Assembly: GCF_988243305.1 (NCBI RefSeq)
Contig: NZ_OZ547136.1
Reading direction: 5' to 3' (one strand)
DNA: 64,000 nucleotides
The position numbers were made by a program, and so were the translations under genes. Under the pieces are notes generated by a model. It did not search any database. It had not been told where the DNA came from and worked only from the letters and a program-made list of their open reading frames with translations. Positions 52,933-53,789 of the stretch are shown piece by piece. The first letter of the stretch is position 1; each line of letters opens with the position of its first letter.

Positions 52933-52968
52933 GAGGCCTCGTTTTGCGAGGCCTCTTCCCGTTTTCTC
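52933..52968 (+). terminator. Putative rho-independent terminator downstream of sdaB
   Basis: ggaggcctcg-tttt-cgaggcctc hairpin followed by ttcccgttttct. Confidence 0.55.
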
Positions 52969-53033
52969 AACCAGCCATAGCCTGTTCCGGCATCGAATGT
53001 TACCCTTATCGCCTGATCTTTAAGGGGGTTATC

Positions 53034-53789
53034 GTGGCTGTTCATTTGCTTATTGTCGATGCACTGAATCTTATTCGTCGCATTCATGCCGTTCAGGGTT
53101 CGCCCTGTGTCGAAACCTGCCAGCACGCGCTCGATCAGCTCATTATGCACAGCCAACCAACCCACGCGGTCGCCGTTTTTGATGATGAAAACCGCAGTAG
53201 CGGCTGGCGTCATCAGCGTTTACCAGATTACAAAGCGGGTCGACCGCCAATGCCGGAAGAGTTGCACGACGAGATGCCTGCACTACGCACCGCCTTTGAG
53301 CAACGCGGCGTCCCGTGCTGGTCAGCCAGCGGTAACGAAGCCGATGACTTAGCCGCCACGCTGGCGGTCAAAGTGACACAGGCCGGGCATCAGGCAACGA
53401 TTGTTTCGACAGATAAAGGCTACTGTCAGTTACTTTCACCGACATTACGTATTCGTGATTACTTCCAGAAACGTTGGCTGGATGCGCCATTTATCGATAA
53501 AGAATTTGGCGTTCAACCGCAGCAGTTGCCCGATTACTGGGGGCTTGCGGGGATCAGCAGTTCAAAGGTACCGGGTGTTGCGGGGATCGGACCAAAAAGC
53601 GCCACGCAGCTACTGGTCGAGTTTCAGAGTCTGGAAGGGATATATGAGAATCTGGATGCGGTTGCCGAAAAGTGGCGCAAAAAATTAGAAACCCATAAAG
53701 AGATGGCGTTTCTGTGCCGCGATATTGCCCGCTTACAAACCGATTTGCATATCGACGGCAATTTACAGCAATTGCGGTTGGTAAGGTAA
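53034..53789 (+). CDS. xni: Flap endonuclease Xni (251 aa), probable GTG start
   Basis: The 281-aa ORF (52944) would start inside the sdaB terminator hairpin; conserved protein begins (M)[15 protein letters not shown] at GTG 53034. Confidence 0.82.

Follow-up and report, generated by a model that had tools for sequence, protein, structure and literature searches.

Translation of xni (ygdG, exo) in the 64,000-nucleotide stretch of DNA analysed here, hereafter the window, starts with high probability (roughly 93%) at GTG 53034 by means of the Shine-Dalgarno sequence AAGGGGG, and the 90 bases upstream, which a six-frame translation adds to the gene, are ordinary intergenic DNA that lacks a stop codon by chance. 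Four independent lines, namely annotation, protein, literature and comparative evidence, agree on this start and support it. The GTG start has been known for years from the literature and from curated annotation, and the finding is therefore correct but ordinary, with a small biological interest and a practical value that lies in annotation hygiene. The locus is a clear example of the 3' hairpin of one gene giving the next gene both a start codon and a Shine-Dalgarno sequence that are false.

The window belongs to an E. coli strain that is not K-12 and shows 99-100% identity to strain KE55 around xni, where sdaC, sdaB and xni follow one another and fucO comes next in convergent orientation. 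The features of the region are collected in Table 1. According to the list of open reading frames (ORFs), the longest six-frame ORF in the frame of xni runs from TTG 52944 to position 53789 and comprises 281 aa; its TTG codon (52944-52946) reaches from the hairpin loop into the 3' arm, of which it takes up one base, the first. Reading from GTG 53034, with this codon decoded as M, gives 251 aa.

Table 1. Features of the sdaB-xni region in window coordinates, with the basis of each assignment.
Feature	Position	Strand	Basis
sdaB CDS (L-serine deaminase II), stop TAA 52921-52923	51556..52923	+	ORF list, mapped RefSeq annotation
sdaB 3' hairpin, 11-pair stem (52932-52942 with 52946-52956), loop UUU 52943-52945	52932..52956	+	folding, covariation
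Shine-Dalgarno-like GGAGG in the hairpin 5' arm	52932-52936	+	sequence
30-codon in-frame extension, non-coding	52944..53033	+	identity 0.10, upstream stops; outside the PDB chain and the Pfam match
Pyrimidine-rich tail UCCCGUUUUCUC, interrupted U tract	52957..52968	+	sequence
Possible -35 TAGCCT, 17 nt upstream of the -10 hexamer	52978..52983	+	conservation, inferred
Putative extended -10 TGtTACCCT	52998..53006	+	conservation, inferred
Shine-Dalgarno AAGGGGG, 5 nt before GTG	53022..53028	+	sequence
xni (ygdG, exo), flap endonuclease ExoIX, 251 aa, GTG start	53034..53789	+	annotations, PDB, Pfam, orthologs

Annotation and Ribosome-Binding Site of xni

The start of xni is placed at the GTG codon by RefSeq annotation (PGAP) for KE55 and two further strains, as well as by the curated K-12 record (NC_000913.3, b2798, 2931055-2931810, protein NP_417278.4 of 251 aa). 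For the transfer of coordinates between the two genomes, K-12 position 2931055, the first base of xni, was equated with window position 53034, and the TTG codon thereby corresponds to K-12 position 2930965. The literature had proposed that xni starts at GUG, preceded by a suitable ribosome-binding site, and encodes a product of 251 aa (PMC1919509). The first-pass annotation of this DNA had described the 281-aa ORF as beginning within the hairpin behind sdaB, and every coordinate of that description is present in the sequence; it had also set the protein start at GTG 53034, on which PGAP, curated K-12 annotation, the solved structure, Pfam, the literature and orthologs all agree.

The GTG codon has the appearance of a canonical start led by a Shine-Dalgarno sequence, with a purine-rich motif inside the usual interval of 4-9 nt and a position that is conserved in orthologs, and its surroundings show no unusual structure (z 0.49). 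Inspection of ribosome-binding sites, which had been suggested as a check, was informative in so far as it revealed AAGGGGG before the GTG; alone it could not decide the case for this allele, because the TTG is itself preceded by a GGAGG motif at a distance of 7 nt. No Xni entry with N-terminal peptide or initiation evidence was found in the supplements of TetRP and TRAINSPOTTER. Regarding the open frame between the two codons, approximately 24% of random 30-codon stretches are without a stop, and the stop-free length of the xni extension is within chance expectation.

The Xni Protein and ExoIX

The crystallised ExoIX chain, represented by PDB entry 3zd8 and six further entries, has 251 aa. 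The chain of 3zd8 aligns through its residues 2-251 to residues 32-281 of the long ORF (E 9e-171), and the Pfam family PF02739 (5_3_exonuc_N, E 1.5e-28) begins at long-ORF residue 35, already at profile position 2. Together with the match to PF01367 (E 2.3e-27), this gives Xni an N-terminal 5'-3' exonuclease (PIN-like) domain and a C-terminal H3TH/SAM-fold domain. When residues are numbered from the GTG, G129, I174 and S177 stand at the Cat2 positions, where the carboxylates are thus replaced; the structure paper names the same residues, Gly129, Ile174 and Ser177, in the 251-aa numbering (PMC3783174). These features place Xni among the ExoIX flap endonucleases with a single metal site. The gene of the window is the same as K-12 xni/ygdG/exo (b2798, PDB 3ZD8), sharing the GTG start, the length of 251 aa, the acidic residues of Cat1 and the lack of Cat2, and its protein differs from that of K-12 by two substitutions over 250 aligned residues.

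Comparison with Orthologous Loci

An alignment with orthologs, which had been called for in the first-pass annotation, was decisive in favour of the GTG. A total of 120 Enterobacterales loci were gathered by means of a degenerate DNA pattern for a ten-residue motif, and 117 of them carry a start at the equivalent position, 7 or 6 codons before the motif, either as ATG (80 loci) or as GTG (37 loci). In 79 loci, no further start codon precedes it in the frame. Ahead of the start, the reading frame lacks conservation and in most loci runs into a stop: the amino-acid identity shared with the window amounts to 0.80 over the 30 codons after the search motif compared with 0.10 over the 30 codons before the start, an in-frame stop occurs less than 30 codons upstream of the start in 101/116 loci, and a count of stops within the 30 upstream codons gave 78 of 90 loci. 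Two Kluyvera loci (L018 and L104) have an identical hairpin, yet an in-frame stop is found 4 to 9 codons before their GTG.

The extension is open in ordinary E. coli, including K-12, and the frame is broken only in a strain of the L032 type, described below, and in other genera. Since the extension stays open within ordinary E. coli, only the comparison between genera is informative. A +1 indel in E. coli strains H3 and H11 was considered as a possible break of the frame and was rejected, as it sits upstream of the hairpin and leaves the long ORF open.

The Hairpin Downstream of sdaB

A stable GC-rich stem-loop starts 9 nt past the stop codon of sdaB. Its minimum free energy is -20.2 kcal/mol, compared with -10.8 +/- 2.6 kcal/mol for dinucleotide shuffles (z -3.64), and none of 200 shuffles was as good. 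The 5' arm reads GGAGGCCTCG in the window and AAAGGCCTCG in K-12, and the intergenic region between sdaB and xni measures 110 nt in the window and 111 nt in K-12. No Rfam match was obtained in 52850-53100, and a full-text search for literature on an sdaB terminator yielded none, the only papers matched being about single-domain antibodies.

Among the 120 loci, 35 have sdaB directly upstream of xni, and most of these possess a hairpin 9 to 13 nt past the sdaB stop, with compensatory changes in the stem. Covariation was measured on an alignment of 23 sequences downstream of sdaB, in which 95.7% of the cells were paired, compared with 36-60% in controls with a slid register. Six of the 11 pairs have changed on both sides, one of them appearing as AU, GC, UA and CG. 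The observed values were reached by 0/500 shuffles on four of five measures and by 122/500 on the remaining one, that of further pair types. Being both conserved and covarying, the hairpin represents a real RNA structure, and it constitutes the 3'-end element of sdaCB transcripts.

The tail that adjoins the stem, CTTCCYGWTTT, is conserved across genera. In the window, directly after the stem, no uninterrupted U-rich tract is found (tail UUCCCGUUUUCUC): windows of eight bases starting 0-2 nt beyond the stem contain 4/8 T, and 5/8 is reached only from 3 nt onwards. Some relatives have better T tracts, such as TTTTCCGCTTTTCCC in locus L026. A simple consensus scan for promoters and terminators over 52000-54500 did not call the hairpin.

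A different arrangement was observed in E. coli SCPM-O-B-8794 (so labelled; locus L032) and in E. albertii (L009), where the spacer between sdaB and xni has 283-284 nt compared with 110 nt in the window. This spacer contains an insert of approximately 174 nt with REP-like palindromes, on both sides of which 19 nt of the hairpin sequence, CCTCGTTTTGCGAGGCCTC, equivalent to window positions 52937-52955, are directly duplicated; the first copy belongs to the full hairpin, which lacks its T-rich tail, and the second to a partial one that has the tail. The long xni frame of L032 meets a stop 13 codons ahead of the motif.

RNA 3' End and Mechanism of Termination

In K-12, Term-seq detected an RNA 3' end at position 2930979 in one condition and 2930978 in another, which was classified as 'primary' for sdaB (Adams et al. 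2021, PMC7815308, supplementary files 1 and 3). Mapped through the start of xni, the end at 2930979 corresponds approximately to window position 52958, which is 3 nt past the stem and 14 nt past the TTG, and an RNA 3' end thus exists in vivo at the hairpin according to published data. In the same study, the intrinsic-terminator score of this 3' end was 1.48, short of the required value of 3 (PMC7815308). It was also assigned a Rho score of 2.18 with a significant Rho termination region, Rho inhibition raising the readthrough (PMC7815308), a score that is computed over 800-nt windows and does not prove that Rho acts at the sdaB hairpin itself.

Like other enterobacterial 3'-end stem-loops, the sdaB hairpin combines a GC-rich stem behind the stop codon, a pyrimidine tail, a 3' end in vivo and covariation. 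It differs from a textbook intrinsic terminator, and is not to be regarded as one, because its U tract is interrupted, its intrinsic score is low and its Rho score is significant. The name 'sdaB terminator' used in the first-pass annotation is consequently settled in part: the hairpin, its covariation and the RNA 3' end in vivo are borne out, and the label of terminator is qualified by the low intrinsic score and the Rho region.

A credible though less likely reading is that sdaCB transcription is ended mainly by Rho, further downstream, and that the RNA is then shortened by 3' exonucleases as far as the hairpin, which would act as a protective cap rather than as a classical intrinsic terminator. 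The two scores point in this direction, as do the location of the RNA 3' end just 3 nt past the stem, the interruption of the U tract and the failure of a simple scan to find the hairpin. However, conservation of the pyrimidine tail extends over several genera, with better T tracts in some relatives, and the score over 800 nt could reflect the transcription of xni itself or a backup by Rho of a leaky intrinsic terminator. The conclusion on the start codon of xni is unaffected by the choice between an intrinsic and a Rho-dependent reading.

A second Term-seq 3' end was observed in the spacer between sdaC and sdaB (51499-51555), 25 nt before the sdaB start and after the GC-rich hairpin GCGCCGCTTTCGGGCGGCGC, so that a 3' end of the sdaC transcript falls within the sdaCB operon.

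A Candidate Promoter of xni

Within the supposed extension, xni probably has a weak promoter of its own, made up of the putative extended -10 element TGtTACCCT and possibly of the weak -35 element TAGCCT. The presence of a conserved TGnTAnnnT motif together with the Shine-Dalgarno sequence between the hairpin and the GTG is what suggests this. The pattern TGNTANNNT is found between -46 and -34 relative to the start codon of 50/115 loci, compared with 1.3 expected from shuffles, a count that is not to be taken as a probability since the loci are phylogenetically related. In the motif the TG, the TA and the last T are kept, and the middle triplet varies (CCC, GGG, AAG, GGC, CTG, TGG), a pattern of conservation characteristic of extended -10 promoters; TGtTACCCT has the TGn ahead of the hexamer and the T(-12), A(-11) and T(-7) of a sigma-70 extended -10 element. 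In many Enterobacteriaceae loci, the sequence ATAGCCT is conserved at approximately -57 to -60 relative to the start codon. A transcript from the putative promoter would begin approximately 20 nt before the GTG.

Alternatively, xni might have no promoter and be expressed by readthrough from sdaCB only, the TGTTACCCT block being, for instance, a protein-binding site or an RNA element. The consensus scan over 52000-54500 called no promoter in the sdaB-xni intergenic region, a search of the Cappable-seq and SMRT-Cappable-seq supplements yielded no transcription start for xni, and the -10 and -35 hexamers each match the consensus at just 3/6 positions, all of which would be compatible with expression by readthrough only. 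Nevertheless, this alternative appears unlikely in view of the selective retention of the TG, TA and final T around a variable middle, at a fixed distance to the start and at a frequency far above that of shuffles, and of the occurrence of the motif in loci with an upstream neighbour other than sdaB (e.g., L006, L024 and L044). A weak promoter belonging to xni is hence the preferred interpretation.

The 281-aa Form of Xni

The TTG codon and the GGAGG that precedes it are both buried in the stem of -20 kcal/mol, sdaCB transcripts end 14 nt past the TTG, and a transcript from the proposed xni promoter would lack this codon altogether, so that translation of the long ORF is not expected. The opposite view, according to which TTG 52944 is a real additional start that yields a GGAGG-led 281-aa isoform on readthrough transcripts of sdaCB, at least where the lineage carries the GGAGG allele, is considered very improbable. 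It can draw on a frame that is open from TTG to GTG in the window, K-12 and other E. coli strains, on the ideal spacing of 7 nt between GGAGG and TTG, on read coverage past the hairpin that is not zero, so that readthrough exists, and on the 281-aa form held in databases. However, both signals lie within the 11-pair stem, K-12 has AAAGG where the window has GGAGG, and the extension is unconserved, with stops in most relatives, including genera that retain the hairpin. In addition, the 251-aa protein folds well enough to crystallise (PDB 3zd8, PMC3783174), and the loop and stem UUUUGCGAGG are conserved for pairing and not for coding, which is the reason why a TTG exists at this place. If the stem were melted, for example by a ribosome terminating at the sdaB stop, a lineage-specific 281-aa Xni coupled to sdaB translation could arise, an outcome to which we likewise give very little credence. 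Initiation at GTG 53034 accordingly stands as the preferred reading.

The long form has nonetheless been propagated: the exact 281-aa 'flap endonuclease Xni' is present in NCBI GenBank protein records of E. coli such as EED1924609.1 and on 817 contigs, compared with 981 contigs for the 251-aa protein, and a 270-aa form is also found. In the window allele, the GGAGG located 7 nt before the TTG probably misleads gene callers. In the table of Adams et al. 2021, the sdaB 3' end is additionally classified as 'internal' to ygdG, with a distance of 14 from the start codon (PMC7815308). This distance matches a start at 2930965, the TTG, and it follows that the long, obsolete 281-aa annotation was used in that study, hence its assignment of the sdaB 3' end to the interior of ygdG. 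With other over-extended N-termini of automatic annotation, the false xni start shares a stretch that is free of stops by chance and an alternative start with a Shine-Dalgarno-like motif upstream; it differs from the usual cases in that the 3' hairpin of the upstream gene supplies both of them, the TTG through its loop and the GGAGG through its stem.

Other Starts and Locus Context

Starts of the longest ORFs lie upstream of the curated K-12 start for 13 genes in the window. Such extensions had been reported in the first-pass annotation for seven genes besides xni, and all seven were recovered relative to the K-12 starts: ygcS (24 aa), ygcW (25 aa), ygcR (5 aa), gudD (8 aa), queD (28 aa), cysH (51 aa) and fucK (10 aa). 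That list was incomplete, as ygcN (10 aa), ygcO (12 aa), ygcQ (11 aa), fucR (3 aa) and fucO (1 aa) are also extended, and one of its members, ygcS, is contested. The statement that ppnN starts with TTG was right. For ygcS (14484-15892, minus strand), the curated K-12 start is ATG 15820, giving 445 aa with AAGGGG upstream, and PGAP uses the first ATG, 15892, in KE55, giving 469 aa; the start of this gene is thus disputed between annotations. An antisense ORF at 52920-53213 (97 aa) was judged to be a six-frame artefact.

Downstream of xni, the spacer that separates it from the convergent fucO (53790-53843) contains the REP-like palindrome GCCGGATACGCCGCAAACGTCGCATCCGGC. In E. coli strains H3 and H11, this spacer has approximately 51 extra nt (L123 and L124, positions 1292-1395), and the insert opens with a repeat of GCCGGAT, which is a part of the palindrome. 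Further away, at 32727-33458, approximately 730 nt lie between mazG and relA, where K-12 has mazEF. This stretch is missing from KE55, the strain closest to the window at the xni locus, whose cas region also differs from that of the window, and the window is therefore mosaic relative to KE55.
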